This document shows, piece by piece, positions 7,889 through 30,590 of a stretch of DNA of 64,000 bases. The notes beneath the pieces were generated by a model, which was given only the letters and a program-made list of their open reading frames with translations, ran no database searches and was not told the DNA's origin. Both the position numbers and the translations under genes were made by a program. The DNA comes from a virus (Duplodnaviria; Caudoviricetes), in IMG/VR virus record IMGVR_UViG_3300049198_000021, positions 64,001 to 128,000 of that record. The stretch is one strand, 5' to 3'. The first letter of the stretch is position 1. The number at the start of each line of letters is the position of its first letter.

Positions 7889-8058
7889 GGTTAATATGCG
7901 GAGCGATTTCGTTAAGGTTAACAGATTCGGGGCATCCGTTAACGTTAACGAGGTCTCCCCTCCCCGTTAACCATTGATCTGGAAAAAGTGCTTGACCGAA
8001 TCGGTTGCTTCTGCGACTCAGGATGCACGGCGAATCACCGCCGCTTGGAGACGACCTA

Positions 8059-8304
8059 ATGCCTTTGAAACCCGCCGCCGCTCTCAGCAAGGATAAGCTG
8101 GGCGCAAGCCACCCCGCCGCCCTCCAGCACCGGCACTTCGCCGTCATCGCTGGAATCCTCGCCAACCTCGACCGGGACAGCCTCGGCTTGACGCAAGGGC
8201 AGCACCTCAACATCTGCCAAGACTTCGCGTCCGAACTCTCCGGAACAAACCCGAAATTCGACGAGCGTCGATTCATGGTCGCTTGCGGGTTCGCGGCCCC
8301 CTGA
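8059..8304 (+). CDS. Cassette hypothetical protein
   Basis: GGAGA RBS before ATG 8059 (start corrected from track). Confidence 0.8.
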   Translation: MPLKPAAALSKDKLGASHPAALQHRHFAVIAGILANLDRDSLGLTQGQHLNICQDFASELSGTNPKFDERRFMVACGFAAP

Positions 8305-8402
8305 TGGGGTGTCTCGACGCTATCGCCCGGTTCTTTCTGGGCGTCTTTCTGTTGATCCTTGCAACTGGGCTGGCCGCGTGCCAGCCCCTTTTCTTACGGT
8401 AA
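8304..8402 (+). CDS. Micro-lipoprotein, copy 1 (32 aa)
   Basis: MGCLDAIARFFLGVFLLILATGLAACQPLFLR; hydrophobic stretch plus LAAC lipobox; TGATG coupling. Confidence 0.7.
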   Translation: MGCLDAIARFFLGVFLLILATGLAACQPLFLR

Positions 8403-8500
8403 CCAGCCGTTAAGGTTAACGCGGCGGGTAATTCGTTAAGGTTAACGCGGCGGGGTAATTCGTTAAGGTTAACGCGCCGGTTGAAATCGTTAACCATCAA

Positions 8501-8568
8501 AGTGGAAAAGTGCTTGACCGAATCGGTTGGACCACCTAGACCCGAATCACCAACAACGGAGACAGACC
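8501..8568 (+). promoter_or_regulatory. Representative cassette promoter and RBS
   Basis: TTGACC (8514), 17-bp spacer, TAGACC, CGAATCA, ACGGAGACAGACC ATG. Confidence 0.85.
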
Positions 8569-8820
8569 ATGAAACTGCAAGAAATTAGCACCACCGAGGT
8601 GGATGAATCGTGCCTCGACGACGACGGGAAGGTTCCTTACATCGCCTTGCATTGTGCAGCGACGGAAGCTGACGCGGCGTTCGTTATCGCACAAACGACC
8701 GACGGCTACGACGGACGCAGCGATTGGCGCTGGATTCGCCTCCCGAACGGCGATCTGATCCTTGGCGTGTTCCCGCAAGGCGACACCTATCTGCAATTCG
8801 CCGACACCATTGGCATTTAA
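8569..8820 (+). CDS. Cassette hypothetical protein
   Basis: Consensus RBS. Confidence 0.8.
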   Translation: MKLQEISTTEVDESCLDDDGKVPYIALHCAATEADAAFVIAQTTDGYDGRSDWRWIRLPNGDLILGVFPQGDTYLQFADTIGI

Positions 8821-8834
8821 GGGGAGGCAAGTAA

Positions 8835-9203
8835 ATGAACCGCTATTTTTACGACCCGGCGACCGCCTCGTGGGGCTCGGCTGACGACCTCGAAATCTTC
8901 GAACTCGACGACCAGAACATGGACGCCGACGAAATCGAACAGGCGCTGTGCGACGCCTCGCACGTCGGGGCCGGGCTCGGCCTGAAATACCTGCTCGACC
9001 GCCGGGCCAAGAATGAGCCCTACCGCCGGGAGAACATCGGGATTCGCGCCGTGAAGGACAACGGCAAGACCGAATGGGAAGTGGTGGAGGACGACGCCGA
9101 CGCCGACGCCTTCGAACTTTACCGGCATGACACCGGGACGCTTGTCGAAGTTTGCGCCACCCGCGAAGACGCTACCGAATACTGGGAAGCGATCACCACC
9201 TAA
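8835..9203 (+). CDS. Acidic hypothetical protein
   Basis: GGAGG RBS; followed by a terminator. Confidence 0.8.
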   Translation: MNRYFYDPATASWGSADDLEIFELDDQNMDADEIEQALCDASHVGAGLGLKYLLDRRAKNEPYRRENIGIRAVKDNGKTEWEVVEDDADADAFELYRHDTGTLVEVCATREDATEYWEAITT

Positions 9204-9208
9204 GGATT

Positions 9209-9234
9209 GGCGGGCTTCGGCCCGCCTTTCTTTT
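9209..9234 (+). terminator. Representative intrinsic terminator; similar hairpins close most cassettes
   Basis: GGCGGGC TTCG GCCCGCC TTTCTTTT. Confidence 0.85.
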
Positions 9235-9349
9235 ACCGGTAACTATTCGTTAAGGTTAACAGATTGGCTTTAGACGTTAACCATTAAAGTGGAAAAATTA
9301 GTCGAAATAGTGCTTGACCGAATCAGCGAATCATCCTAGACCAAATATC

Positions 9350-9445
9350 GGAATGACCCCTCCGGCGGGCCGCTCGATGACGGGGCGGATGGGGAGGAGG
9401 CGATGGGATAATCCGAAAGGATGAAGCCCACGTTAGCCCGCCAAA
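9350..9445 (+). ncRNA. Candidate structured, possibly pseudoknotted 5' leader RNA
   Basis: Pairings 9357-63/9387-94 and 9364-70/9436-42; GAAA hairpin 9411-22. Confidence 0.4.
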
Positions 9446-9464
9446 TTGTAACAGGAGACAGACC

Positions 9465-9842
9465 ATGCAAACCATCTGGCAATTCGAAACCAAGAACTTC
9501 ACCGTCCGAATGTCTTGCGACTACGATCAGGACACCACAGACCTTTCGTGGGATGACACCGGCGAAGTCGCTGAAAAGCTGGCAAGCGGTGAATGGGCCT
9601 GCTATACCTTCCACGCCGAAGTTATCGAAAACTCCACCGTTAACACCATCGGGGAAGACTACCTCGGCGGTTCTATCTATGCCAACCCGGAAGACTTCCG
9701 GGACCATGTGGGGCTCGCAATCAAGAGCCGCGAAGATGGGCGCAACTATGGCAGCTACTTCACGGACATGATCCGCGAAGCGATCCGCGAGGCTCGCAAG
9801 ACCTACGCCGAACAGCGCCCGCGCCTTCGCGTTCCAGCCTAA
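9465..9842 (+). CDS. Cassette hypothetical protein
   Basis: Consensus RBS AGGAGACAGACC. Confidence 0.85.
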   Translation: MQTIWQFETKNFTVRMSCDYDQDTTDLSWDDTGEVAEKLASGEWACYTFHAEVIENSTVNTIGEDYLGGSIYANPEDFRDHVGLAIKSREDGRNYGSYFTDMIREAIREARKTYAEQRPRLRVPA

Positions 9843-10023
9843 GGGAGAGGGGCCTAGCGCCCCTCTTTCTTCGCCGGTAACTATTCGTTAAGGTTAACGC
9901 ATCGGGGTAATTCGTTAACCATCAAAGTGGAAAAAGTGCTTGACCGAATCACTTGAGACACCTAGAAACGAATCAGCAATGCAGGGAGCGACTCGCACCG
10001 GGCAGCTACAACGGAGATAGGCC

Positions 10024-10413
10024 ATGCCGCAAATTTTGATCGAATACACGAAGACGGAAGTCACCCGCGAACGGGTGTGGATCGAAGCCGACTCGCCCGC
10101 TGAGGCGTTGCGGGTTGTCGAGGAATATGAATTTGACAATTCGGACGCCTACGAAGTCGATTCGCTGCGCTGGGAAATCAGCGATGCTTCTGTGCATGAG
10201 GTGGAGCCCGTGGAAGTGGAAGTGCTTGTGCGCCTCCCCGTCGCCATCACATGCGAGCGCGACAACGTGGAGACCGTGGTCCACCGCGTGGCGACCGTCG
10301 CCGAAGCCGAAGAGTGGATTGCCGTGGGTCTTGCCGACGGGTTCCTTGACGAAGACGACGTGGAACAGGGCACCTACGGAATCGATGCCCCTGAGGAGAT
10401 GATAAACCCATGA
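10024..10413 (+). CDS. Very acidic hypothetical protein
   Basis: RBS; VWIEADSPAEA motif. Confidence 0.8.
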   Translation: MPQILIEYTKTEVTRERVWIEADSPAEALRVVEEYEFDNSDAYEVDSLRWEISDASVHEVEPVEVEVLVRLPVAITCERDNVETVVHRVATVAEAEEWIAVGLADGFLDEDDVEQGTYGIDAPEEMINP

Positions 10414-10670
10414 CCATCATGCGCCCATTCGTGAACATAAACGGCACCAGCCGGGCCGCTCTTGTCGATCAGCGCCGCGCCGCGATGGAAGCCGTCCGGC
10501 TTGCCATGACGGCCCTGCAAGAGACCTGCCCGCATGGCCGCGACTACATCGGCGATCCGGCCCGCTTCGACCATGACCGGGGCGTCTATAACCGGCGGTT
10601 CGCCAAGCTGGACGAATTGCACAACGACTTGCTGGACGAAGCGTTAGCGATTCAGAATGGAGGGGCTTAG
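10410..10670 (+). CDS. Cassette hypothetical protein
   Basis: ATGA overlap; terminator follows. Confidence 0.8.
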   Translation: MTIMRPFVNINGTSRAALVDQRRAAMEAVRLAMTALQETCPHGRDYIGDPARFDHDRGVYNRRFAKLDELHNDLLDEALAIQNGGA

Positions 10671-10804
10671 GCCCCTCTATTTTTACCAGTAACTCGGCGT
10701 TAAGGTTAACACCACAGAGATCGGCCTTAACCATTAAAGTGGAAAAAGTGTTTGACCGAATCGCTTGTTTGTCATAGAACGAATCATCACAACGGAGACA
10801 GACC

Positions 10805-11134
10805 ATGAAAGACTTGCTTGACCGCTGCCTCGCCCGTCCGGGTAAAAACTTCGGAGCGGGCTATGGCTTCGCCCTCGCCTATCTGGACGACAAGATGAAC
10901 CCCGCTCACTTGCGGGACGCCGCTTGTCACATGGTCGGCAAGGCATACGGTCCCCACGGCTGGGCCGCTGCCCGTAAGAGCCCTGATCTGGCGTCATTCG
11001 TGCTGGCATACAGCGAAGCGGAATGCTTCGAAGACTTCGCAATCGAAGCGGCACAACTGCTGCTGGAATGGGGAATGCGTGGCGATCCGGACGCCGCCGC
11101 CGCGCTTCGCCTTTGCGGCCATCCGGGTTATTGA
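10805..11134 (+). CDS. Cassette hypothetical protein
   Basis: Consensus RBS. Confidence 0.8.
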   Translation: MKDLLDRCLARPGKNFGAGYGFALAYLDDKMNPAHLRDAACHMVGKAYGPHGWAAARKSPDLASFVLAYSEAECFEDFAIEAAQLLLEWGMRGDPDAAAALRLCGHPGY

Positions 11135-11281
11135 GGGAGGGGCTTCGGCCCCTTTCTTTTTATTCCTAACACATCGTTAAGGTTAACGCGCCGCCATTCT
11201 CCGTTAACCACTGGGATGGAGAAAGTGCTTGCTCGAATCACTTGATTGGTCTAGGGTGAAACTATCAAGAGGAGATTGCCC

Positions 11282-11515
11282 ATGAAAAACTTGCTCAAGG
11301 AATACCACCAAGCTGCTGACAGGGAAATCCAACGCTGGCCCGGCGTTGCGATTATCGAACGCAGGATCGGCAAACACGCCCGGCTGAGTCTGGAGTTTCA
11401 GGGCCGCAGGCGCTTTGTGATTCACCCGGCCTCACCCAGCGACGTTCGGGGAGTCCATCGCCACGTTCAGGATATTAAGCGCGTCCTGACTGAATTAGGT
11501 GCGAACCGGGTCTAA
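11282..11515 (+). CDS. HicA-like fold protein
   Basis: RRIGKH...VIHPASPSDVRG...DIKRVL resembles phage HicA-like GxH / PSDxR proteins. Confidence 0.55.
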   Translation: MKNLLKEYHQAADREIQRWPGVAIIERRIGKHARLSLEFQGRRRFVIHPASPSDVRGVHRHVQDIKRVLTELGANRV

Positions 11516-11597
11516 AAATAAGTGGAAAAAGTGATTGACCGAATCACTCTAACCGCCTAGACACGAATCACCGCAATCAAGCGGACGGAGACAGACT

Positions 11598-11954
11598 ATG
11601 AAAAACCTCGAAACCCGTATGAATAAGGGCCGGGACGGCTGGCAGGCAAAGACGGAAATCCCTCTCGAAGGGATCAGCATCACGGACGGCGACAAGGTGA
11701 AGCCGGCGATCCTGACGATCAGCACCCGCAAGCATTCGCGTGGCGGCCTCTCCACCGGTTGCAGCGTCGCCTTCCGCGACGGTAACTTCATGACGCACCG
11801 CGTCTATACCGACTTCAACGTCGCCTATACCCGCGACCCGAACGCTCGCTGCACCGAAAAGGCAATCGAGCGGATGCACTCCGAGGCGCTGGCGGACATT
11901 GCCACGATCGAATCAGCGGTTCGCGACCACTACGCCGCGCTCGAAGCGGAATAA
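11598..11954 (+). CDS. Cassette hypothetical protein; paralogue of 12115..12510
   Basis: Consensus RBS; shared motifs. Confidence 0.85.
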   Translation: MKNLETRMNKGRDGWQAKTEIPLEGISITDGDKVKPAILTISTRKHSRGGLSTGCSVAFRDGNFMTHRVYTDFNVAYTRDPNARCTEKAIERMHSEALADIATIESAVRDHYAALEAE

Positions 11955-12114
11955 GGGAAGGCGGGGAAACCCGCCTTTTCTTTTGCCCTTAGCCCGGTGT
12001 TAACCTTAACAAATCGGCCGCATTCGTTAACCATCAAAGTGGAAAAAGTGCTTGACCGAATCGCTTGTTCAACCTAGACACGAATCACCGCAATCAAGCG
12101 GACGGAGACAGACT

Positions 12115-12510
12115 ATGAACGAGACCACCGTCAAAAAAGACCACTGGGGTAAGTGGATTGCTGAAACCCGCACCCCGCTTCCCGGCATTCGCAGCATGAG
12201 CGCCACGAACAACGAAGAGCGCAACGAACCCGCCGCCTTGCTTGTCAGCACCTACAAGGACTCGCGTGGCGATCTGGTCAGCAACGCAATCGTGATCTTC
12301 ATCACGGACAGCGGCCACCGCACCGCAATCGGCGGCCCGACCGGCGACTACAGCCGCACCATCCGCCGCGAACGCGGCGCACGCGTCACCGAGAAGAAGC
12401 TTCGCAGCTATCACGCCGAATCGCTCGGCTATATCCCGCAGGTCGTCGCTGATCTGGCGAACCACTACAATCAGGGCGACCCGCTCGCCGAACGGGCGAA
12501 GGCGGCCTAA
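12115..12510 (+). CDS. Cassette hypothetical protein; paralogue of 11598..11954
   Basis: Start corrected to MNETT; identical leader. Confidence 0.85.
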   Translation: MNETTVKKDHWGKWIAETRTPLPGIRSMSATNNEERNEPAALLVSTYKDSRGDLVSNAIVIFITDSGHRTAIGGPTGDYSRTIRRERGARVTEKKLRSYHAESLGYIPQVVADLANHYNQGDPLAERAKAA

Positions 12511-12674
12511 AAAGACTGGCGGGCTCCGGCCCGCCTTTCTTTTGCCGGTAACCAACCGTTAAGGTTAACGCGACGAGATAATTAGTTAACCATTAAAGTG
12601 GAAAAAGTGCTTGACCGAATCAGCGAGTCACCTTATCAACGAATCACCGCAATCAAGCGGACGGAGACAAGACC

Positions 12675-13324: not shown

Positions 13325-13474
13325 GGGAAGGCGGGGCAACCCGCCTTTTCTTTTGCCCTTAGCCCGGTGTTAACCTTAACAAATCGGATCAAGTAGTTAA
13401 CCATCAAAGTGGAAAAAGTGCTTGACCGAATCGCTTGTGCAACCTAGAACCGAATCACCAACAGGAGACAGACC

Positions 13475-14025: not shown

Positions 14026-14151
14026 GCGCCCGTTTACCAGCCGTTAACCTTAACAAATTGAACTAACTTGTTAACCGCTGATCTGGAAAAAGTGCTTGAC
14101 CAAATGCAACGGCTCGCCTAGAAACGAATCAGTTGAAACGGAGACAAGACC

Positions 14152-14709: not shown

Positions 14710-14850
14710 AGACTGGCGGGCTCCGGCCCGCCTTTCTTTTGCCGGTAACCAGCCGTTAACCTTAACAAGTCGTTACCACTAGGTGGAAAAAGTGATTGAC
14801 CGAATCGGTTGTGTCTCCTAGAAACGAATCAGTTGAAACGGAGACCGACC

Positions 14851-15147
14851 ATGAGCATCACATACCACACCACCCTGCCCGCTTGGGAACACGGTGAACT
14901 CGATGAAAGAGGCTGCCTACGCCCGACGAAAGGTAAGCTGATCTGGAGCAATACCAACCCGCCTCCGGCGATTGGCGACCGCGTTCGCATCCGCGTCAAC
15001 GGCATCGGCATGGCGACCGTGGAGTCCTACTTCGAACAGGAAGGCTATCTCGGCATCCTGACGACCGTTGACGCTTGGCCGACGTTCTTCGCCAAGCAGA
15101 ACGGCGAGGACCGCTCCTGCCACGCGTTCGGCGCTGAAATCGCTTAA
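14851..15147 (+). CDS. Cassette hypothetical protein
   Basis: Start corrected to MSITY. Confidence 0.8.
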   Translation: MSITYHTTLPAWEHGELDERGCLRPTKGKLIWSNTNPPPAIGDRVRIRVNGIGMATVESYFEQEGYLGILTTVDAWPTFFAKQNGEDRSCHAFGAEIA

Positions 15148-15309
15148 AGACTGGCGGGCTCCGGCCCGCCTTTCTTTTGCCGGTAACCAGCCGTTAACCT
15201 TAACAAATCGGCCTAAGTTGTTAACCATCAAAGTGGAAAAACTACTTGACCGAATCGGCTGGAACGCATAGAAACGAATCACCGCAATCAAGCGGTTGGA
15301 GACCTGACC

Positions 15310-15732
15310 ATGCCTAAGTGGCAATACACCGGCGATATGTCGCTTGAATATGGCGGCTTCTACTGGAAAGACGAGGGTGATCCCGAGTCGGTGGAAGCCC
15401 TCAAGGTCACCCCTTGCAGCGACGCGGGCGGCCCCGACAACCTGTTCCACGTCGAATCGGGAACGGTCTACATGAACCCCGAACGCCTCGAATCGGCACT
15501 GGATGTCATCGGGCTCACGCCTGAAACGGCAAGCCGGGATGATGTGATCTACGCGTTCCAAGCCTATTCAGGACTGGACCGGGACGCCTACGGCGGCGAG
15601 CGGGTGATTCGCATCGGTCCGGATGAATCCGACTACATGCGCCGGTCCGGCGGGTGGAACCCGGAACCCGACGTAATCCTGCGCGCTGGGACCGATCTTC
15701 GCAAGTGGATTGAACGCAACTGGCTGGATTAG
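15310..15732 (+). CDS. Cassette hypothetical protein
   Basis: RBS and terminator. Confidence 0.8.
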   Translation: MPKWQYTGDMSLEYGGFYWKDEGDPESVEALKVTPCSDAGGPDNLFHVESGTVYMNPERLESALDVIGLTPETASRDDVIYAFQAYSGLDRDAYGGERVIRIGPDESDYMRRSGGWNPEPDVILRAGTDLRKWIERNWLD

Positions 15733-15864
15733 GTTAGGGGCTTAGGCCCCTTTCCTTTCCCGGTAACCTGCCGTTAACCTTAACAATCGGTTACCATTAA
15801 GTGGAAAAAGTGCTTGACCGAATCGGTTGTCTAACCTAGAACGAATCATCTAAGGAGACAGACC

Positions 15865-16200
15865 ATGAAACCTAAAGACATTGCCGTCGATTATTACAGA
15901 CAAACCCGCACCTATCATTGGCTTCCCCTTGACCCCACAAAAGCCGACTACGGCGCATCGTGGGGATTGCGGGGACCGCAAGGCACCACCTATCTGCTGA
16001 TCGCCGATCAATCCTATCCGGATTGGACACATCGCTTGGTTGCTATCGGGCAATACTCTGGACTCTATAACATGGAGACCGGGCGCGGCTCGGATGAGAT
16101 CGCCCGCGACATCGCATCCATCCTGAAAGCACACCCCGGCAATCTCGATATTGACCGCAAGATCAAGAAGGCTGACTTCGATTCGTGGGTGCTGGTATGA
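15865..16200 (+). CDS. Cassette hypothetical protein
   Basis: Consensus RBS. Confidence 0.8.
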   Translation: MKPKDIAVDYYRQTRTYHWLPLDPTKADYGASWGLRGPQGTTYLLIADQSYPDWTHRLVAIGQYSGLYNMETGRGSDEIARDIASILKAHPGNLDIDRKIKKADFDSWVLV

Positions 16201-16388
16201 CCACCGCCCTATTCCCCGCCCATTGGGGACCGCAAGGCCGGTTCTATCATCGCTCAAACGGGACGGCCTACGGACCTTCCCAACCGGGCGAAACGTTGGA
16301 GCAATACAAGGCCCGGATCAAAAACGCCTATGGCAACTTGCGGGGCGTTACGTTCCACGACGCAAACGAGGAGAGCCCCGGCGAATAG
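16197..16388 (+). CDS. Cassette hypothetical protein
   Basis: ATGA overlap. Confidence 0.7.
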   Translation: MTTALFPAHWGPQGRFYHRSNGTAYGPSQPGETLEQYKARIKNAYGNLRGVTFHDANEESPGE

Positions 16389-16508
16389 CCGGGACGATCC
16401 CGGTAACCAGCCGTTAACCTTAACAAGTCGTTACCACTAGGTGGAAAAAGTGCTTGACCGAATCGCTTGTGTTGCTTAGAAACGAATCAGTTGAAACGGA
16501 GACAGACC

Positions 16509-17009
16509 ATGCCAGACGCACGCGACTACACCGCCTTCCACGAAGTGGACGATGCAACATATGGGCGGGAAGCCCTACGCAAAGCCGACTTTGCCGCTTG
16601 CCCTATCCTCGCTGATTTCATCGCCACCATGCTGCAAGACTTGCAGTATCGGGAAGCGGATGAAGCTTGCGAGGAAGAGCGGGAAGAGGGCGACACCGGC
16701 ACCATCTACACCCTTGAAGAGGGTGTCTATCAGCGTTGCAAGACCCTCTGCGAAGAGTTCATGGAACGCAACGCAACGCACATCGCCGAAGCGCTTGATC
16801 TGGAACCGGGCTCCGATGGACTCCGCTATACCAGCAATCACATCACGCACGAACGAATCGGCTCAACGTTCTACATGCTACTTGTCGGGCACGGGGTTAG
16901 CTTCACCGATGATGGCAACGCCCCTTGCCTCGAAGCCTTGAACGCAGACACCCGATGCGAGCGCGGCGCTGAGTTCTACTTTGACGGGGAGCGCGTCTAT
17001 TACTGCTAA
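16509..17009 (+). CDS. Acidic hypothetical protein
   Basis: Start corrected to MPDAR. Confidence 0.85.
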   Translation: MPDARDYTAFHEVDDATYGREALRKADFAACPILADFIATMLQDLQYREADEACEEEREEGDTGTIYTLEEGVYQRCKTLCEEFMERNATHIAEALDLEPGSDGLRYTSNHITHERIGSTFYMLLVGHGVSFTDDGNAPCLEALNADTRCERGAEFYFDGERVYYC

Positions 17010-17160
17010 GGGAAGGCGGGGCAACCCGCCTTTTCCTTACCGGTAACCGATCGTTAAGGTTAACACACCAACCGATCTTGTTAACCATCAAAGTGAAAAA
17101 AGTGCTTGACCGAATCACTTGGCTGTCCTAGAAACGAATCACCAACAACGGAGACAGACC

Positions 17161-17400
17161 ATGCAGACCGCAGTTCAACGCCTTAACGAAGCCGCTAAGA
17201 CCTCATTCATGAAGCCGCAGTGCTTCAAGGGTGGTGAGATTCAGGAAGCTATCATGGAAGCTGGCCTCGATCTCGAAGACGACAAGGTTTATGCCCGCCT
17301 GTCGGCAAACGGCTATCTGGATTGCACCGATTGGAGCGGCCCTTACGATAGCGTGGAAGAGGCGGCGGAAGGCTTGCTTTCCCTATACTTCGAAGATTAA
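17161..17400 (+). CDS. Cassette hypothetical protein (ARLSANGYLDCTDW motif)
   Basis: Start corrected to MQTAV. Confidence 0.8.
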   Translation: MQTAVQRLNEAAKTSFMKPQCFKGGEIQEAIMEAGLDLEDDKVYARLSANGYLDCTDWSGPYDSVEEAAEGLLSLYFED

Positions 17401-17421
17401 GGAGAGCTTGACGTGGTGCAA

Positions 17422-17568
17422 ATGAACGAAACAGCAATCCAAGCGCCGCGCTATGACGGGCGAATCATCCGGGCGATTAACGGCGGAACCGTCAAGGTAG
17501 GTGGCGGATGGGACCCGGAACGACCGCGACGACTCGACTTCGACACCATGCCTTGTGTGTGGGTGTGA
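17422..17568 (+). CDS. Small hypothetical protein (48 aa)
   Basis: Manual translation MNETAIQAPRYDGR...; ends at a terminator. Confidence 0.45.
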   Translation: MNETAIQAPRYDGRIIRAINGGTVKVGGGWDPERPRRLDFDTMPCVWV

Positions 17569-17722
17569 GGGGCTTCGGCCCCTCTCTTTTTGTCTGGTAA
17601 CCAGCCGTTAACCTTAACAGCGCGGTAACTAAATGGAAAAACTTCTGGACGAATTGGCTTGCGAATCGCTGGCGACTCACCTAGGAAGAGTTCAGCGCAA
17701 TTCCGCGCTTGGAGACGACCAA

Positions 17723-18157
17723 ATGTCATCACCTTTCCTCCCGTCGGTGCAAGAGCAACTGCAATCGCGCCGCGACGAATCCGAAACCGAGTTCGCTGTG
17801 ACCCACATCGATACTTGCCTTTCCTCATTCCTGAATGACCACCACAATCGCGATGGCGAATTGCTGCTGGGCGTTTTCGTGGATGGTAACGCCACTGTCG
17901 GGCAAGTGCTGGACGGCTTGCGCGACGAATATCGCCAGATCGCCTACGAGATGGGCGAGAATCGGCTGGGCTTCGATTACGACGCCGGCTTGGCTGCCAT
18001 CGATTCGGTGATCGCCGAGAACGACGATAATCGTGACAAGCCGTTTGACGCTTCGCTGGACGTTCTGGGCGAAGACGACGATTGCAGCGAATCGTGCCAA
18101 GCGTGGTTCCTCATCCACTGGGACGTTCCGGAAGAGGAGGACGGCTCATCGGATTGA
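17723..18157 (+). CDS. Very acidic hypothetical protein
   Basis: GGAGA RBS before ATG 17723. Confidence 0.8.
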   Translation: MSSPFLPSVQEQLQSRRDESETEFAVTHIDTCLSSFLNDHHNRDGELLLGVFVDGNATVGQVLDGLRDEYRQIAYEMGENRLGFDYDAGLAAIDSVIAENDDNRDKPFDASLDVLGEDDDCSESCQAWFLIHWDVPEEEDGSSD

Positions 18158-18246
18158 TGGATGCGGTTGTCCGCTTAATCGTTGGAGTTCTTTTCCTGAT
18201 CCTTGCAACTGGGCTGGCCGCGTGCCAGCCCCTTTTCTTTGGGTAA
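18157..18246 (+). CDS. Micro-lipoprotein, copy 2 (29 aa)
   Basis: MDAVVRLIVGVLFLILATGLAACQPLFFG; TGATG coupling. Confidence 0.65.
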   Translation: MDAVVRLIVGVLFLILATGLAACQPLFFG

Positions 18247-18347
18247 CCATTCGTTAAGGTTAACAATACGTGGAGCCCGGTGGAAAAAGTGCTTGACCGA
18301 ATCGCTTGCGTCACCTAGGAACGAATCAGTTGAAACGGAGACAGACC

Positions 18348-18856: not shown

Positions 18857-19012
18857 GGGGAGGGGCTTAGGCCCCTCTCTTTTTACCTGTAACCCTTCGT
18901 TAAGGTTAACAGCCCGACAAGCTCTGGAAAAATAAATGGAGAAAGTGCTTGCGCGAATCGAATCACTGGCCTATTACCGAATCACCGGCACGGAGCCGGA
19001 AGGAGAAAGACC

Positions 19013-19459: not shown

Positions 19460-19638
19460 GCCTTCGGGCTCTCGGCAGAGGGGCAGGGTTTGGTCGCCCT
19501 GCCCCTCACCTTTTTCTGGTAGGGACCCGTTAACCTTAACAAATAGGGCCGGGTTGTTAACTCTGAAAGTGGAGAAAGTGCTTGACCGAATCACTTGCTT
19601 CGGGCAGAAACGAATCACCACAACCGGAGATAGACCAA

Positions 19639-20168: not shown

Positions 20169-20276
20169 CCTTAACGAATACATTCACCTTGTTAACCATC
20201 TTTGAAGTGGAAAAAGTGCTTGACCAAATCACTTGCACCGCCTAGAAACGAATCACCAACAACGGAGACAAACCAA

Positions 20277-20696: not shown

Positions 20697-20864
20697 ACAG
20701 GGAGGGGCTTAGGCCCCTCTCTTTTTGTCTGGTAACCAGTCGTTAAGGTTAACAGAATCGGCCGATCGCATTAACCATGTGTGCAGGTGGAAAAACTTGT
20801 TGACCTAATCCGTGGAATGTGCGAATCACAAGTCACGGCGAATCAACGCCGACGGAGACAGACA

Positions 20865-20996: not shown

Positions 20997-21007
20997 GGGG
21001 CTCGACC

Positions 21008-21646: not shown

Positions 21647-21809
21647 AAGGGACCCGGCGGCTCTGAGAAGTGCCGCCGGGTTTCTCTTTTTGGGTAACTG
21701 GTTGTTAAGGTTAACGCCGGGTTACCAGAGGTGGAAATAGTGCTTGACCGAATCACTGGAAAATGCGAATCAGGGGTTACCGGAAGAGACCGGAAACAGG
21801 AGACAGACC

Positions 21810-22118: not shown

Positions 22119-22122
22119 CACC

Positions 22123-22205: not shown

Positions 22206-22336
22206 ATTCTGGTAACCAATCGTTAAGGTTAACAGAGCGGCCGAATGGGTTAACCATCAAAGTGGAAAAAGTGCTTGACCGAATCACTGGGAACGGGCAA
22301 ACGAATCAGGCGCACTCAAGCGCCGGAGACAAACCA

Positions 22337-22893: not shown

Positions 22894-22916
22894 ACCGGGA
22901 GGGGCTTCGGCCCCTC

Positions 22917-23025: not shown

Positions 23026-23249
23026 AGGCAGCGCGACCGGGCCGAATCAGTTGATCAAGCGTTAACCAAACCGACCGGAACCGATGGTTAACAAAACTGA
23101 TCATTCTGTTAAGGTTAACGAAATCGTGGAAATCGTTAACAAATATGGTTAACAAAATACCCCTATTTGTTAACCATCAAAATGGAAAAAGTGCTTGACC
23201 GAATCAGCGAATCGCCCTAGAAACGAATCACCAACAACGGAGACAGACC

Positions 23250-23576: not shown

Positions 23577-23751
23577 CAACGGGCGGGGAGGGAAAACCCT
23601 CCCCGTTGCCGATTCGTTCCATGGTTAACGGAATCGGAGGATTTGTTAAGGTTAACGAATGGGTTAAAGTTGTTAACCATCAAAGTGGAAATAGTGCTTG
23701 ACCGAATCGCCTATGCCGACTAGAAACGAATCAGTTGAAACGGAGACAGCA

Positions 23752-23904: not shown

Positions 23905-24059
23905 GGGCTGCGGCCCCTCTCTTTCTGCTCTTAACCCGGCGTTAAGGTTAACGTAATGAGGTAAATCGTTAACCATAGAAGTGGAAATTAAATGGAAAAA
24001 GTGCTTGACCGAATCAGCGAATCACCTTAGACCGGGATCACCAACAACGGAGACGACCG

Positions 24060-24293: not shown

Positions 24294-24460
24294 GAGAAGG
24301 GGCTTCGGCCCCTTTTCTTTTGCCCTTAACTCCGCGTTAAGGTTAACAGATCGGACCACTTTGTTAACCATTAAAATGCAAGCAAGTGGAAAAAGTGCTT
24401 GCACGAATCAGTGGCCTAGGGCAAACGAATCAGGCGACACAGAGCCGCCGGAGACGACCT

Positions 24461-25157: not shown

Positions 25158-25292
25158 GGGAAGGGCGGACCGCCGCCCTTTTCCTTGTTAGTGGTTCGTT
25201 AAGGTTAACCAATCCTGCCACTTGAGTGGAAAAAGTGCTTGACCGAATCAGTGGAGCCGCCTAGACCGGGCTGACCAACACGGAGATTTTCT

Positions 25293-25544: not shown

Positions 25545-25711
25545 GGGCGCGGGCTTCGGCCCGCCTCTTGGCTGGTAACGGTTTGTTAAGGTTAACGCCC
25601 GACCGGAATTTGTTAACCATCAAAATGGAAAGTAAGTGGAAAATTGCTTGACCGAATCGGCTTAGACTGGCACTAACGAATCACCGCAATCAAGCGGACG
25701 GAGACAAGACT

Positions 25712-25798
25712 ATGAGCCGACACCAGAAACGCCGCCTTGCCGCCAAGCGTGCGCGCATCGCCATTCTTTCCTCGTGGATCGCAAAGGGCCGCCGCTAA
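25712..25798 (+). CDS. Arg-rich 28-aa peptide
   Basis: MSRHQKRRLAAKRARIAILSSWIAKGRR after the consensus RBS; TAATG coupling to next gene. Confidence 0.7.
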   Translation: MSRHQKRRLAAKRARIAILSSWIAKGRR

Positions 25799-26064
25799 TG
25801 GCTGGCTTCTGGGATCGCGTGGACACCCTCGAAATGGTGGAACTCTACGCCGAGGACAACGGGCAGATTGCCAGCGAAGAGGAGCTTTCCAAGCGCTTTG
25901 ACGCCGAAATCCTTCCGCTCGTGCTGGAGCAATACAGCGAGTCCGATACGGTCGCAATCAATGAGGCTTTCAACGATTGGACCGATTCGCTCTGCAAGGA
26001 CGGCGAAATCCACCCGGATCAATACGATTCTTACTGCTACGTTGGGAGGCTGGCAGACGACTAA
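25798..26064 (+). CDS. Very acidic small protein
   Basis: Start MAGFW; terminator follows. Confidence 0.8.
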   Translation: MAGFWDRVDTLEMVELYAEDNGQIASEEELSKRFDAEILPLVLEQYSESDTVAINEAFNDWTDSLCKDGEIHPDQYDSYCYVGRLADD

Positions 26065-26173
26065 GGCGAGGGGCTTCGGCCCCTCACCAAACTTTTTTCG
26101 TAATTAGTGGAAAAAGTGCTTGACCGAATCAGTTGGCTCGCCTAGAAACGAATCAACAGCAACGGAGGCAGTC

Positions 26174-26326
26174 ATGCAGATCAACACTTACCACGTTTAC
26201 ATCAACAACACCTTTTCCGGGATCATCTCGGCGGTGTCTTACCGGCAGGCTCTCAAGCGCGCCAAGGCAAAGCATCGCGGCCCGGTTGACGTGATCGGGT
26301 TCGTCTCCGCAAAGGCGAAGGTTTAA
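26174..26326 (+). CDS. Small basic protein; paralogue of 31030..31302
   Basis: Start corrected to MQINT. Confidence 0.75.
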   Translation: MQINTYHVYINNTFSGIISAVSYRQALKRAKAKHRGPVDVIGFVSAKAKV

Positions 26327-26488
26327 GGGGAGGGGCTTCGGCCCCTCTTTCTTTTTGCCTGTTACGATCTGTTAACCTTAACAAATATGGTTAACAAATT
26401 AACGTTTGGCGTTAACCATTAAAGTGGAAAAAGTGCTTGACCGAAGCAGTGACTCGTGTGAAAACGAATCATCAATCGGAGACAGATC

Positions 26489-26668
26489 ATGAAGAATCGC
26501 AACACCCTTGACGCCCGTTACAGCATCCGCCTCGAATGGTGCGGACACGCCACGCAACAATGGGTCGCCCGCTTCTGTGGTGATTGGCTGGGCTGCGATG
26601 CAACCCGCTCGGGCGCTGAGGAAATCGCCCGGCTTTATGAGCGCGACCGCTGGGCGGTGGCGGCATGA
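26489..26668 (+). CDS. Small hypothetical protein (59 aa)
   Basis: MKNRNTLDARYSIRLEWCG...ARFCGDWLG; consensus RBS; absent from track. Confidence 0.75.
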   Translation: MKNRNTLDARYSIRLEWCGHATQQWVARFCGDWLGCDATRSGAEEIARLYERDRWAVAA

Positions 26669-26841
26669 AACCGAAACACCCTTGCAGCGTAAAGCGCGAC
26701 GCAATTTTTCTGGCCGCTGTAAAGCATCCCTTCACCCGGTGGAACGAACACACAGGCGAACAACAAGCCAGATTTATCAAGCAGGCCACGCATATCCGGG
26801 AGCATCTGCGGGATTACGAACCGGGAGCATTCATCGACTAG
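26665..26841 (+). CDS. Small hypothetical protein (58 aa)
   Basis: ATGA overlap; ends at a terminator. Confidence 0.6.
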   Translation: MKPKHPCSVKRDAIFLAAVKHPFTRWNEHTGEQQARFIKQATHIREHLRDYEPGAFID

Positions 26842-26990
26842 CAAGAGGCGGGAGCGATCCCGCCTTTCGCATTGTTAACCCAGTGTTAAGGTTAACATAT
26901 TGGTCTAAGTTGTTAACCATCAAAGTGGAAAAAGTGATTGACCGAATCAGCAAATCGGCCTAGACCCGAATCATCAACCGGAGACAGATC

Positions 26991-27119
26991 ATGCAAAACA
27001 TCCGCAAGAACCCCATCGCCGCCTCGCTCGCCAGCGCCCACCTCGTCCCTCGCAAGGTTCGCGCTCGCAAGGGCAAGGGCTCTTTCCGCCGCAACCCGAA
27101 ACACCGGGGCGCGGCGTGA
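26991..27119 (+). CDS. arfA: ArfA-like alternative ribosome-rescue factor (42 aa)
   Basis: MQNIRKNPIAASLASAHLVPRKVRARKGKGSFRRNPKHRGAA matches the ArfA pattern N.I...L....L..R.....KGKGS..R..KH. Confidence 0.75.
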   Translation: MQNIRKNPIAASLASAHLVPRKVRARKGKGSFRRNPKHRGAA

Positions 27120-27460
27120 GCGACCGCATCCGCCCCGTGGTTTTCGACTCGGCCCAGATCGAGCCCTTTGCCGCTCGCATCATCGGCATAGCCGCTTCGC
27201 AATTCTGTCGCCTCAAGGAGCGCGAGAAAGAGACCGGAGAGAAGTCGGACCCCTTCGACATGGAAGACGCTCTGATGCACCTCTGGTGGGCTCTCAAGGG
27301 GCTTGACCACATCGCAATAGCGTTGCGCGGCGGCAGGGATTGCGACGACCCGTCTGGCGTTCATTTTTCCATGGTGATGAACGCAGAACACGCCCGGATT
27401 CGCCGCCTTATCATGGAAGAACTCGGAGTCGATCCCGGATCACACCCGCGCTGGAAATGA
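27116..27460 (+). CDS. Cassette hypothetical protein
   Basis: GTGA overlap; terminator follows. Confidence 0.7.
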   Translation: MSDRIRPVVFDSAQIEPFAARIIGIAASQFCRLKEREKETGEKSDPFDMEDALMHLWWALKGLDHIAIALRGGRDCDDPSGVHFSMVMNAEHARIRRLIMEELGVDPGSHPRWK

Positions 27461-27613
27461 GGGGCTTCGGCCCCTCTTTCTTTTCTGGTAACCGTTCGTT
27501 AACCTTAATAAACGGCCCGAAATCGTTAACCATCAAAGTGGAAAAAGTGCTTGACCGAATCAGCGAATCGGCCCATACCCGAATCACCGCAACCAAGCGG
27601 ACGGAGACAGTCA

Positions 27614-27904
27614 ATGCAGACCAACGATCCCAGCGCCGTCACCCACCACAACGGAGGCACCACCTTCACCGGCGACGCCATCCACCTCTACCGCGCCGTG
27701 ACCCTCAAGGGCGCTCTCAAGCTGCACCGCGATTGCGGCATGATCCCGACTCGCGGCATGACCATCACAAAGATGTTCGCCATCGCCCAGCAGATCACCG
27801 GCAAGAAGTATAAGCGCGGCGGCCATGATGCGGCCATCACCGACCTGACCGCGTGGATCGAAGCCGCCAAGGCATCCATGCCGATCATCGACGAGCGGAC
27901 CTGA
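27614..27904 (+). CDS. Cassette hypothetical protein
   Basis: Start corrected to MQTND. Confidence 0.8.
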   Translation: MQTNDPSAVTHHNGGTTFTGDAIHLYRAVTLKGALKLHRDCGMIPTRGMTITKMFAIAQQITGKKYKRGGHDAAITDLTAWIEAAKASMPIIDERT

Positions 27905-28132
27905 AAGGAGATTGGTTAACGGGGAAGCCCTCCCCGTTAACCATATTTCCGGCTGGTAACCAGTCGTTAAGGTTAACAGCGCCGCAGCATTCCTTAACCA
28001 TCAAAGTGGAAAGTAAGTGGAAAAAGTGGTTGCACGAATCAGCGAATCGGTCTAGACCCGAATCACCGGGCGGCACCTACTGACTGGCAGAGCAGCGGCA
28101 AGGCTCGCCCGGTAAACAACAGGAGACAGACC

Positions 28133-28294
28133 ATGTTCGAAGTGATCACTACGCTCCGCACCTTCTATGTGCAGGCTGACACTTTCAACCTCGCCGTCCT
28201 CTCGGCTTATCAATTCATTCTGGACGACGAATCGATCCTCGGCATCAAGACCGACGGACCTGCAACGTTCATCATCGTGGAGATCGCAGCATGA
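28133..28294 (+). CDS. Small hypothetical protein (53 aa)
   Basis: MFEVITTLRTFYVQAD...; consensus RBS; absent from track. Confidence 0.7.
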   Translation: MFEVITTLRTFYVQADTFNLAVLSAYQFILDDESILGIKTDGPATFIIVEIAA

Positions 28295-28509
28295 TCAGCA
28301 AGAAAGACGCAATCGCCAAGGCAATCGCGGCTGGAGCCTCGCAAGAGGAAATCGACCGCCAAGCCGCAAACTACGTCCGCCAAGTGGGCAGCGTGCCTTT
28401 CAACAACATGATTCGCGCCCTTAACCTAGGCCCGTGGCTCAACACGGTTGACGACTGGACCCCGCTGGCAGCAGCCCTGACCGCGAGGGGATTGGCGCGA
28501 AAGCGCTAA
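28291..28509 (+). CDS. Cassette hypothetical protein
   Basis: ATGA overlap. Confidence 0.75.
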   Translation: MISKKDAIAKAIAAGASQEEIDRQAANYVRQVGSVPFNNMIRALNLGPWLNTVDDWTPLAAALTARGLARKR

Positions 28510-28629
28510 TTCCTTAACGGAATAGGGGAATTTGTTAAGGTTAACCCGAATTAAGAATAAAGTGGAAAAAGTGCTTGACCGAATCGGTTAACCATCCTAG
28601 AAACGAATCAACAGCAACGGAGACACACC

Positions 28630-28842
28630 ATGAAGATCAAGATCAAGACCACCGCCCGCTACACCGCCAAGCGCAAGGCTGCTATCATCGCCGACGTGGA
28701 CAACGGCACTACCACCCTCGAAGAGGTTTGCAGCCTGCACAACATCACAAGCGAAGAGTTCGACGGCTGGCGCAAGTCGCTGGACCGCTCGGGACAGCAG
28801 GGGCTTCGGATCACCCGGCTGCAACACTACCGGGCAGCATAA
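28630..28842 (+). CDS. sciP: SciP / DUF1153 family CtrA-inhibitory protein homologue
   Basis: T.R...RKA..I..V..G...LEE.C......EEF..W...LDR.G..GLR.TRLQ.YR matches alphaproteobacterial SciP along its length. Confidence 0.88.
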   Translation: MKIKIKTTARYTAKRKAAIIADVDNGTTTLEEVCSLHNITSEEFDGWRKSLDRSGQQGLRITRLQHYRAA

Positions 28843-28972
28843 GGGAAGGGGCTTCGGCTCTTTTTCTTTTGCCTTTAACCCAGTGTTAAGGTTAACAAGT
28901 CAACTGAATTAGTTAACTAATTAGCTGGAAAAAGTGCTTGACCGAATCAGCGAATCGGCCTAGACCCAAGCC

Positions 28973-29140
28973 ATGGAAATGACCCTTTCAGAAATCCGCC
29001 ACAAGCGTGACCGGGCAATCGTTCAGCGCCGACTCGGCGAGGAACGCCGCCGCCACGTTAACCAATGCGTCGCCGACATCATCGCACAAGGAAAGATGGA
29101 AGAGCGCCGCCAGACCACCCGACGGGAGGAAGACCAATGA
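28973..29140 (+). CDS. Small basic protein, probably leaderless
   Basis: ATG 6 nt after the -10 hexamer, no RBS; ATGA overlap with next gene. Confidence 0.6.
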   Translation: MEMTLSEIRHKRDRAIVQRRLGEERRRHVNQCVADIIAQGKMEERRQTTRREEDQ

Positions 29141-29337
29141 CAGACCGCCGATTCGTAATTGTCGAAAACGCCGGATATGAAGGCGAGCAAGACATCACCC
29201 ACTTTCTCACCTTGCGGGAGGCATTCGCCTATCAGCGCGGCCATTATGAGCCGGACGAGATCGAAGAATTGCACGTCGATATTCGCCAAGACTGGACGGA
29301 CGAAAACGGCGATTTTCATCAGGAATATGTCTATTAG
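29137..29337 (+). CDS. Small acidic protein
   Basis: GGAGG RBS; start MTDRR. Confidence 0.75.
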   Translation: MTDRRFVIVENAGYEGEQDITHFLTLREAFAYQRGHYEPDEIEELHVDIRQDWTDENGDFHQEYVY

Positions 29338-29404
29338 GTGGAAAAAGTGCTTGACCGAATCGGTGGCCTATGCGAAAACGAATCATCGAAACGGAGACAA
29401 GCAA

Positions 29405-29599
29405 ATGACCACCATCCTGATCCTCGCCGCCGCCGCCCTGATCTTCGCCACCGTGGCATTTTTCAAGGCCCGCGCCGAACTCGCCGCTCACGCCGCCGAA
29501 CAGGCAAGCAAGCATATCCCCAACCCCACCATCTACAGCGGCCCGCGCTTCACCGCACATGGCCGGGAAATCCAACAGACCGGACGGCGGATCATCTGA
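29405..29599 (+). CDS. Small membrane-anchored protein
   Basis: MTTILILAAAALIFATVAFF N-terminal hydrophobic helix. Confidence 0.75.
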   Translation: MTTILILAAAALIFATVAFFKARAELAAHAAEQASKHIPNPTIYSGPRFTAHGREIQQTGRRII

Positions 29600-29755
29600 G
29601 AAAGGGGCGGGAGAAATCCCGCCCTTTTCTTTGGCCGGTAACCGGGTGTTAAGGTTAATAAAACGGTGAAATTCGTTAATCATCAAAGTGGAAAAAGTGC
29701 TTGACCGAATCGGTTGGCGAGTTTAGACCCGAATCATTGGAAACGGAGACAGACC

Positions 29756-29953
29756 ATGAGCAAGCCCACCGAACAAGCAATCGCCGCCGACCTCGACCTT
29801 TGCGACATGATCCTTGCATTCGGAACGCCCGCCGCCAAGCGAAAGGCCCGCGCCCACCGCAAGGCTTGTTTCGCAGAAATCGCCCGGATGAACGCCGAGG
29901 CCGGGACTGACAAACTGAGCGATGATGAATTGCTCGCTGAATTGATGGCCTGA
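29756..29953 (+). CDS. Cassette hypothetical protein
   Basis: Start corrected to MSKPT. Confidence 0.8.
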   Translation: MSKPTEQAIAADLDLCDMILAFGTPAAKRKARAHRKACFAEIARMNAEAGTDKLSDDELLAELMA

Positions 29954-30141
29954 TAGGAACCGGCCCCTGACAACAGGGGCCGGGACCCTAATTCACTGAG
30001 AACAAGGGCCGGGCTCTAAAATCGTAAATTCAGGTTAACCTTAACAGATCGGTCGAAATCGTTAACTATTAAAGTGGAAAAAGTGCTTGACCGAATCGTT
30101 TGGCGCGTTTAGACCCGAATCATTGAAAACGGAGACAGACC

Positions 30142-30417
30142 ATGGAAAGATTCGAACTGACGGGCTCGGGCATCAGCGACGGGCAGAATCCGGAAAAACT
30201 GCTTGCTGCCGCGAAAAAGTGCGGCCTTCGGAATCCCCGACTCGCCTATCACTACGGCTGGTCCAATCAGCCGAAAACGATTCGTTTCAGCGCCGAAAAC
30301 TGGGAAGCTGCCGATAAGGTCGCCGATCTGGTGCGAACCGAGTTTTACCCGGAAAACGCCGAGGGCCGTTTGTGCCCGATGATTCGGGCCTATCCGGTAA
30401 AAGCCCCAGAAGCCTGA
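30142..30417 (+). CDS. Cassette hypothetical protein
   Basis: Consensus RBS. Confidence 0.8.
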   Translation: MERFELTGSGISDGQNPEKLLAAAKKCGLRNPRLAYHYGWSNQPKTIRFSAENWEAADKVADLVRTEFYPENAEGRLCPMIRAYPVKAPEA

Positions 30418-30590
30418 TCCCGGAAAAGCCCGATTCGCCGAATCGGGCTTTTTCCTTTTTCGGTAACCCTGCGTTAACCTTAATAAAACGGCGAAAATCG
30501 TTAACCCTAAAAATCGGCCTTTCTGGAAAAAGTGCTTGACCGAATCGGCCTTTTCTGGAAAAACCGGACCACCGCAAAGGGAGAAAAGAC

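Follow-up and report, generated by a model that had tools for sequence, protein, structure and literature searches.

Candidate GcrA-type GANTC heptamers at fixed positions in a promoter array of phiCbK-like phages of Sphingomonadales

We analysed a 64,000-nucleotide stretch of viral DNA (hereafter the window), which spans bases 64001–128000 of the 176.5-kb IMG/VR virus record IMGVR_UViG_3300049198_000021, a genome rated complete by CheckV, and which holds an array of 40 promoter-led cassettes with GANTC-containing heptamers at fixed promoter positions. The structural genes of this phage show ~80% nucleotide identity to Erythrobacter phage XM05 and more distant matches to Erythrobacter phage vB_EliS-L02 (L02) and Sphingobium phage Lacusarx. 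The phage and its relatives are phiCbK-like siphoviruses of Sphingomonadales (Alphaproteobacteria), and the host of this uncultivated phage is probably Erythrobacter-like, judging from the hosts of the relatives (Erythrobacter and Sphingobium). The array sits between the large terminase gene and the PhoH/portal genes (Table 1). In Lacusarx, the region between terminase and portal has two-fold read coverage and was taken as a terminal repeat (PMC5648845); by analogy with that presumed repeat, the array region is probably the DNA that enters the cell first.

All cassettes follow one plan. A terminator, a TTAACC(AT) box (TTAACY) and an A-rich block similar to a proximal UP element (GTGGAAAAAGTGC) are followed by the core promoter, which consists of TTGACC, a first heptamer (site A), a variable spacer holding a further heptamer in some copies (site B), TAGAAA and another heptamer (site C). 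A short leader, a GGAGAC ribosome-binding site, ATG and one to three small genes complete the cassette. Anchoring on TTGNNCGAATC retrieved 36 promoters, and a profile search run with no motif requirement gave 40 cassettes, the extra four having a mutated first site. Sigma70-type -35 and -10 hexamers were found across the 40 cassettes, in the general form TTGACC-17 bp-TAGAAA, with a spacing in the 16–18 bp range of such promoters. The -35 is consensus; the -10 (TAGAAA in 11 cassettes, TAGACC in nine, others in the rest) keeps T-12, A-11 and A-9 and is missing T-7. An earlier note on this DNA had described a -10 without its final T, and that T is present in only one cassette of the 40. An E. coli-type promoter scanner called no cassette promoter, because it requires the final T of the -10; the same scanner did detect strong plus-strand terminators between the cassettes.

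The window contains 121 copies of the heptamer CGAATCR (R, A or G), whereas shuffled sequences contain 32.2 ± 5.5 (0 of 100 shuffles reached 121), and nearly all copies lie on the plus strand between 7997 and 30547. GANTC as such shows no enrichment over the whole window (283 vs 328 expected), and its density in the array (27–35 per 4 kb) is about three times that in the remaining genome (~11 per 4 kb). The placement described in the earlier note is confirmed by the cassette counts. CGAATC(A/G) abuts the -35 at site A in 36 of 40 cassettes, its last base being A in 18 and G in 18 and its GANTC beginning 6 nt past the T of TTGACC. Site C, straight after the -10, is occupied in 31 of 40, invariably by CGAATCA at an offset of 28–30. 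The third, spacer site noted for some copies is present in eight (offset 14, near -19), as CGAATCG, CGAATCA, CGAGTCA or TGACTCG, and in a variant class of three cassettes GAATCA or GACTCA (TGCGAATCA) occupies the position of the -10 hexamer itself. Pairing, which the note had ascribed to most cassette promoters, extends to 35 of the 40 (at least two GANTC sites each), and none of the 40 has zero sites. Within the array the heptamers form direct repeats spaced 8, 16–17 and 24 bp.

This heptamer matches a published binding site of GcrA, a cofactor of sigma70-RNA polymerase in Alphaproteobacteria that reads N6-methyladenine; its GANTC core is the target of the host methyltransferase CcrM. In Caulobacter, sites bound by GcrA have the MEME consensus TGATTCG, or more broadly YGAKTCK (PMC4647560), and the GcrA DNA-binding domain was crystallized as a monomer on methylated TGATTCG, with seven of seven bases contacted (PMC5887438). 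The earlier note had given CGAATCA as the reverse complement of a preferred GcrA site, and both papers bear this out; CGAATCG likewise fits YGAKTCK. At least one YGAKTCK-type GANTC lies within 40 bp of the predicted start in 40 of 40 cassettes, and all copies at sites A and C match on the bottom strand. GcrA rides on sigma70, and where a promoter has high-ranked methylated GANTC sites it increases both the binding of polymerase and the formation of the open complex (PMC4647560). Its DNA-contact residues (R33, N34, I37, G38 and H41 in Caulobacter) are generally highly conserved among ~1000 homologues (PMC5887438). GcrA (PF07750) is encoded in 197 of 301 sampled alphaproteobacterial genomes, a tally that takes in two unpublished genomes (G033 and G208) and a claim that is independent of both. 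In Sphingomonas sp. AAP5, GANTC is the most abundant N6-methyladenine (m6A) motif (PMC8067484).

The enrichment is confined to certain flanks of GANTC. Among the 32 NGANTCN classes, CGAATCA/TGATTCG is the most over-represented in the 176.5-kb genome (97 vs 43 expected) and CGAATCG/CGATTCG comes second (84 vs 56 expected); only these two classes are enriched, and most others are depleted genome-wide. We rejected a special avoidance of GANTC, for which the observed/expected ratio outside the array is 0.64 (second-order model), since other NNnNN palindromes behave alike (TCNGA, 0.58 genome-wide).

Conservation was assessed on 59 orthologous promoter pairs, in which promoters of this phage were matched to those of diverged relatives through downstream genes of <97% identity. 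The mismatch per position is 0–0.10 in the GAATC of site A and 0.07–0.14 at site C, against 0.2–0.46 in the spacer, which also has low information content; the freely varying spacer of the earlier note thus holds. Site A alternates between A and G at its seventh base (mismatch 0.49), which corresponds to the degenerate Y of YGAKTCK. The heptamers are retained in XM05, L02 and Lacusarx although the upstream block and spacer differ. L02 promoters read GAAAATAGTGC-TTGAC-GAATCAC...TGGCAGAAA-CGAATCATCGG, with site A shifted one base into the -35, and Lacusarx promoters read GACCAGAAGAAAAGGCC-TTGAC-GAATCA. Sites A and C are kept in all IMG/VR relatives with 68–99% terminase identity. This pattern indicates that the heptamers are under purifying selection, beyond mere copying along with the module. 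Established here are the existence and fixed placement of the sites, their preferential conservation and their exact match to the published GcrA site.

The fixed spacing is equally apparent when GANTC plays no part in the selection of promoters. In 494 unique promoter-like elements gathered without a GANTC requirement, the offsets of GANTC from TTGAC fall almost solely at 5–6 (293), 13–17 (71), 23 (26) and 28–31 (265). At the spacer site of these elements the central base varies (44 A, 18 C, 7 G and 2 T) with GA-TC kept, and the Lacusarx spacer position reads CGA(G/C/A)TCG in 7 of 10 aligned promoters. A varying N within a preserved GA-TC at site B would be expected of a methylation site rather than of a site read base by base. 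Sites A and C have a central A (T on the other strand) with very few exceptions.

The heptamers also occur at promoters beyond the array. Placed by their distance to TTGAC, 35 of the 71 heptamers outside the array lie at most 45 nt downstream of it, at four discrete offsets, and some promoters with good -10 boxes carry the spacer site only; the promoter of an ImmR-like regulator gene (see below) is also among them. A second promoter family of ~17 copies lies on the minus strand at genome positions 15136–60333, outside the window. Its form is TTGACG-17 bp-TATCTG (TA(TCTG)), with YGATTCG straight after the -10, that is, in the opposite orientation; CGAATCR often follows ~9 nt past YGATTCG (~15 nt further on), just ahead of the GGAGAC ribosome-binding site (site D). 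The two heptamers make an inverted repeat or hairpin in some copies, and each arm stands alone in many. An RNA hairpin (GATTCG...CGAATC) was rejected as the main explanation of this family, because the arms often occur singly. The orientation flip argues for a reader of double-stranded DNA and against strand-specific polymerase contacts.

Caulobacter phage CcrRogue lacks GANTC in the promoters of its terminal repeat, which makes the heptamer design look specific to the Sphingomonadales branch. One relative, at 45% terminase identity (IMGVR_UViG_3300033074_001959; L126), has no CGAATCR in the region after its terminase (L126 1517–11516). Tandem GTTAAGGTTAAC / GTTAACC repeats are dense there, and the 10 kb contain 79 GANTC, for the most part GACTC/GAGTC with other flanks. 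A scan of bacterial genomes for TTGACCGAATC-N17/18-CGAATCA returned 50 matches, in unrelated phyla, vs ~35 estimated by chance, and no array-type promoter sets were found on the bacterial chromosomes of the genome collection scanned. Two cases stand apart, an intergenic locus conserved in Azospirillum and a small contig of phage-like character in a metagenome-assembled genome (MAG). The former is an intergenic TTGACCGAATCG-N17-TGCGAATCA element of five Azospirillum-type genomes (L129 4643–4678; L138, L146, L160 and L172), upstream of a gene with a YdjC-like domain, with both heptamers conserved and the spacer variable; GcrA is encoded in the one such genome checked, and the locus may represent this promoter logic on a chromosome. 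The latter, a 3.7-kb contig (L173) binned in a Roseobacteraceae MAG, has four paired-heptamer promoters and almost certainly derives from a phage of this group, a fragment of which was misplaced into the bacterial MAG.

A search of the whole 176.5-kb phage genome for gcrA (PF07750) and ccrM-type (PF01555) genes, a check proposed in the earlier note, found none. No Sigma70_r2 domain was found in the phage genome either, and the one sigma-factor trace is a single weak 58-residue tblastn match to a Lacusarx sigma-like gene. Outside the window, on the minus strand at genome positions 162925–163713 (L006:926–1714, P0001), the phage encodes a 262-residue putative DNA methyltransferase, a homologue of Lacusarx gp064 (phrog_799, E = 1.7e-55) with no Pfam family. 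Its motif I precedes (S)NPPY, and it is therefore predicted to be gamma-class and not CcrM-like. The gene adjoins those for a dCMP deaminase and an A1-like DNA transfer protein. The Lacusarx replication module that includes the gp064 gene is syntenic in phiCbK-like phages (PMC5648845). We drew no link between the NPPY methyltransferase and the GANTC promoters, since the module is shared by phiCbK-like phages and these include Caulobacter phage CcrRogue, which lacks GANTC promoters. The phage further encodes two HTH_3 regulators, one ImmR-like (286 residues) and one Cro/CI-like (119 residues). Nine of the ten larger array proteins compared with Pfam have no family; the tenth belongs to the SciP family (Table 1).

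Two features point to the host cell-cycle circuit. One cassette of the array is devoted to a SciP-family gene. Caulobacter SciP counteracts CtrA-activated transcription, and the phage copy suggests active interference with the cell-cycle circuit of the host. The second feature is the TTAACY motif, present within 80 bp upstream of 33 of 40 promoters and at one fixed offset in 19. These TTAACC(AT) boxes (window 7950–30520) lie ~25 nt upstream of TTGACC, at ~-60 from the predicted start, and resemble CtrA half-sites. Mascolo et al. 2022 reported that CtrA boxes (TTAA-N7-TTAA or TTAACCAT) cluster in phiCbK-like phages, with Lacusarx among them, in the intergenic parts of early or terminal-repeat regions, and described this as 'lytic deferment' (PMC9437464). 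The boxes of the present array are candidate CtrA sites of that kind.

We suggest that host GcrA reads CcrM-methylatable heptamers (YGATTCG on the other strand) in the early promoters of the phage, a reading that we judge to stand about evenly between right and wrong. GcrA binding, methylation of the sites and an effect of either on transcription are what we infer from the promoter sequences. In each promoter a -35 of consensus form (TTGAC), preceded by the A-rich UP-like block, is paired with a -10 that is crippled (TAGAAA/TAGACC), so that polymerase should bind well and open the DNA poorly; a -10 this weak suits an activator of open-complex formation. GcrA held on sigma70 region 2 would place its DNA-binding domain, a monomer, on a methylated heptamer near the -10 and drive open-complex formation, so that early transcription would depend both on the abundance of GcrA and on whether the GANTC sites of the phage are methylated. 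The heptamers would in this way render the early array and most other host-type promoters of the phage GcrA-responsive and methylation-sensitive, and, together with the TTAACC(AT) boxes and the SciP-family gene, would tie the early programme to the host cell-cycle circuit. The data suggest, accordingly qualified, a phage whose early genes are tied to both the methylation and the cell-cycle machinery of its host.

The earlier note had also raised a switch by which replication dilutes methylation and turns the array off, which is possible; in Caulobacter, GcrA targets may or may not differ in activity between the fully methylated, hemimethylated and unmethylated states (PMC4647560). Such a dilution switch implies that progeny would be packaged unmethylated, so that incoming DNA would need re-methylation, by host CcrM or a phage enzyme, before the early promoters could fire. 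Host CcrM might act on entry, gating infection to cells that contain CcrM, or methylation might be restored before packaging. In its strongest form, the proposal is that a clade of large lytic Sphingomonadales phages has placed nearly its whole host-polymerase regulon (~75 promoters) on GcrA, with methylation state as an epigenetic timer and with CtrA-like boxes and SciP gating the cell-cycle stage. Methylated incoming DNA would fire the array, replication would outrun methylation and silence it, and methylation would be restored before packaging by CcrM or the NPPY methyltransferase. We regard this extended version as distinctly unlikely.

The GcrA and methylation reading of the earlier note is sustained in part. 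Motif identity, purifying selection and heptamers on both sides of the -10 speak for it; the lack of phage gcrA and ccrM and the position of site C do not. With the -10 hexamer set at -12 to -7 and start sites predicted, the site centres fall at -27 for A (-28 in L02 and Lacusarx), -17 to -19 for B, -3 to -5 for C and ~+12 for D. Caulobacter GcrA sites cluster near -20 and at +2 to +30, with almost none near -10 (PMC4647560), and the GcrA domain modelled on the closed complex is allowed at -30 ± 2, -20 ± 1 and +5 to +30 (PMC5887438). Sites A, B and D lie in or beside these modelled windows and site C outside.

Several observations weigh against reading by GcrA. First, the best-kept site, C, lies between -10 and +1, outside both the Caulobacter distribution and the modelled windows. 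Second, the central base is a near-fixed A at sites A and C, though YGAKTCK allows GAGTC/GACTC; the constraint there is tighter than the published motif, and a different sequence-specific protein could equally require it. Third, YGAKTCK is a Caulobacter-derived motif, the GcrA of Sphingomonadales may differ, and the host of the phage is a probable one, deduced from its relatives. Fourth, GANTC is absent from the terminal-repeat promoters of the distantly related phage CcrRogue. Last, Mascolo et al. 2022 scanned alphaproteobacterial phages, Lacusarx included, with a GcrA matrix and saw no positional clustering (PMC9437464). Our direct count in Lacusarx is contrary to that result: of the 19 CGAATCR on its plus strand, 16 fall within the final 15 kb.

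The alternative that survives best is that the heptamers are operators for another DNA-binding protein of phage or host, independent of methylation, for example one of the phage HTH_3 regulators, through which the early promoters would be repressed or activated together. The ImmR-like and Cro/CI-like proteins supply candidates, and the promoter of the ImmR-like gene itself (TTGACAC-CGAATCG ... TAATAAC-CGAATCA; genome 141492–141522, minus strand; window numbering 77486–77531) combines sites A and C like the array promoters, as a repressor that regulates its own gene would be expected to do. In the second family, several promoters contain the inverted repeat YGATTCG-N9-CGAATCR, a typical dimer operator, and the fixed central base at sites A and C suggests base-specific reading. 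Against this, the direct repeats of the array and the single arms of the second family suit a monomeric reader better than an XRE-type dimer, the central base of site B varies with GANTC kept, and an exact match to the crystallized GcrA site would have to be coincidence (~1 heptamer in 8192). We consider another protein unlikely, if far from negligible.

A direct effect of m6A that bypasses GcrA, acting on duplex stability or polymerase contacts at -5 to -1 and beside the -35, would let promoter strength follow CcrM activity. Adenine methylation at N6 destabilises A–T pairs, site C lies inside the future transcription bubble, where Caulobacter GcrA sites are rare, and site B preserves GANTC while its N varies. 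However, the flanks (C before, R after) are conserved beyond the needs of CcrM, sites A and C do not vary in their central base, no more than two of the 32 NGANTCN classes are enriched, and sites A and D fall outside the melted region, which leaves this explanation only a slim chance of being right. That the heptamers are functionless, either as passengers of a duplicated, recombination-homogenized module or as plain polymerase contacts (extended -35, discriminator, start-site sequence), is highly improbable: all cassettes clearly derive from one module, the final A of site C could be the start nucleotide and bacterial chromosomes lack such arrays (50 matches vs ~35 estimated by chance in the scan above), but orthologous pairs conserve the heptamers while the spacer drifts, the heptamers survive in lineages with diverged promoter flanks, and they recur elsewhere, facing the other way in an unrelated family of promoters and at a third position (-19) where the -10 box is good.

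The closest known counterparts of the arrangement favoured here, reading of the heptamers by host GcrA, are the GcrA/CcrM promoters of Caulobacter crescentus (ctrA P1, mipZ and cckA among others; Haakonsen 2015, Wu 2018), which are likewise sigma70-type, have TGATTCG as top heptamer and carry one or more GANTC of the YGAKTCK type no further than 40 bp from the start, upstream or downstream of the -10 and in either orientation. The promoters described here, as putative GcrA targets, differ in belonging to a lytic phage, in their number (~40 tandem copies and ~35 further promoter contexts), and in their rigid positions, near-invariant central base and best-kept site between -10 and +1. A known GcrA/CcrM promoter logic has apparently been taken over wholesale by a phage regulon. 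The phages studied by Mascolo et al. belong to the same group, have the same post-terminase region of many small genes and TTAACC(AT) boxes, and share the idea of a host cell-cycle regulator read by phage early promoters. In CcrRogue, the CtrA box, TTAAC-N6-TTAAG, replaces the -35; here, by contrast, the -35 is normal, the CtrA-like box lies upstream (~-60) and GcrA-type heptamers occupy the core promoter.

Among promoters sensitive to Dam methylation, Mu mom with OxyR, IS10 pIN and P1 cre are single GATC-containing promoters of Gammaproteobacteria, in which adenine-methylation sites in or beside the hexamers couple expression to replication or methylation state, usually through blocking of a repressor or direct effects on the hexamers. 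The present case differs in involving a whole regulon, GANTC and a putatively dedicated m6A-reading activator. The T5 pre-early/early and T4 early promoters and the SPO1 host-takeover module also comprise dozens of standardized host-sigma promoters with one to three small genes each, placed in the DNA that enters first, with an A-rich UP-like block upstream of the -35 and strong -10 boxes; we know of no methylation-site component in them. Near-identical promoters and the UP-like block are common to those arrays and to this one, whereas the weak -10 and the GANTC sites set the latter apart. Our full-text literature searches found no paper describing GANTC or GcrA sites in phage promoters, and repeated promoters are mentioned in neither the Lacusarx paper (PMC5648845) nor the L02 paper.

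Reading of the sites by GcrA, if it occurs, would make this the first phage regulon known to run on a bacterial pair of m6A reader and methyltransferase, and a second, independent line, beside the CtrA boxes, from phage early genes into the alphaproteobacterial cell-cycle circuit. The ~300 natural promoter variants with four discrete site positions would then form a ready mutational series for the effects of GcrA position and orientation. Three relatives are in culture with their hosts (XM05 with Erythrobacter sp. JL475, vB_EliS-L02 with E. litoralis DSM 8509 and Lacusarx with Sphingobium sp. IP1), so the idea is testable now. If GcrA is not the reader, the heptamer would still mark another regulator of most early promoters in this phage group.

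Table 1. Features of the array region, in window coordinates; sites A, B and C as defined in the text
Feature	Position	Strand	Sites and remarks
Large terminase gene	4754..6487	+	
Array of 40 autonomous cassettes	7992..30571	+	profile search and cassette table
Variant promoter	7992..8037	+	A (CGAATCG); GACTC at -10 position, CGAATCA at +40
Promoter	8514..8549	+	A (CGAATCG), C (CGAATCA)
Promoter	9314..9349	+	A, B (CGAATCAGCGAATCA); C absent
Promoter, type example	9940..9975	+	A, C; -10 TAGAAA
Promoter	10752..10786	+	A, C; C one base nearer
Promoter	11229..11264	+	A alone; -35 TTGCTC
Two promoters (11535, 12052)	11535..12087	+	A, C in each
Promoter	12611..12646	+	A, B (CGAGTCA; N = G, GANTC kept), C
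Promoter	13422..13457	+	A, C
Promoter	14096..14131	+	A lost (CAAATG); C retained
Six promoters (14796, 15246, 15814, 16454, 17106, 18293)	14796..18328	+	A, C throughout
Promoter	18949..18984	+	overlapping heptamers CGAATCGAATCA at A; C; -35 TTGCGC
Promoter	19582..19617	+	A, C; -10 CAGAAA
Promoter	20220..20255	+	A mutated (CAAATCA); C retained
Variant promoter	20800..20845	+	no A; TGCGAATCA at -10 position, CGAATCA at +40
Variant promoter	21744..21772	+	A; TGCGAATCA at -10 position
Promoter	22275..22308	+	A, C (offset 28)
Promoter	23195..23230	+	A, B, C
Promoter	23698..23733	+	A, C
Promoter	24005..24040	+	A, B; C lost (CGGGATCA)
Promoter	24399..24432	+	A, C (offset 28); -35 TTGCAC
Promoter	25239..25274	+	A alone
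Two promoters (25648, 26120)	25648..26155	+	A, C
Promoter	26437..26471	+	A lost (GAAGC); B TGACTCG; C present
Promoter	26938..26973	+	A, C; B position AAATC, not GANTC
Two promoters (27551, 28030)	27551..28065	+	A, B, C
Promoter of SciP-family gene	28575..28610	+	A, C; TTAACCAT within spacer
DUF1153 (SciP-family) gene, 70 aa, own cassette	28630..28842	+	PF06627, E = 3.5e-20; context, not promoter element
Promoter	28938..28973	+	A, B; C absent
Three promoters (29351, 29701, 30087)	29351..30122	+	A, C
Last promoter of array	30536..30571	+	A alone
GC-rich palindrome past array	31338..31391		GAGTC and GACTC, then four overlapping heptamers

Between the terminase gene and the first cassette, ~1.5 kb (window 6488–7991) hold no convincing gene; the gap is also present in XM05 and Lacusarx and may contain the packaging or terminal-repeat boundary. 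The leaders of the cassettes are of a few recurring types, one with a small hairpin, CACCGCAATCAAGCGGACGGAGAC, and others reading GTTGAAACGGAGAC and CCAACAACGGAGAC; they recur at 11570–11590, 12087–12107, 12646–12666, 15281–15301, 25683–25703 and 27586–27606, which suggests that leaders are exchanged as modules separately from genes. Past the array, the four heptamers that follow the palindrome are TGATTCG, CGAATCG, CGATTCG and CGAATCA, which brings the total to six GANTC in ~55 bp, with a terminator-like hairpin after them.

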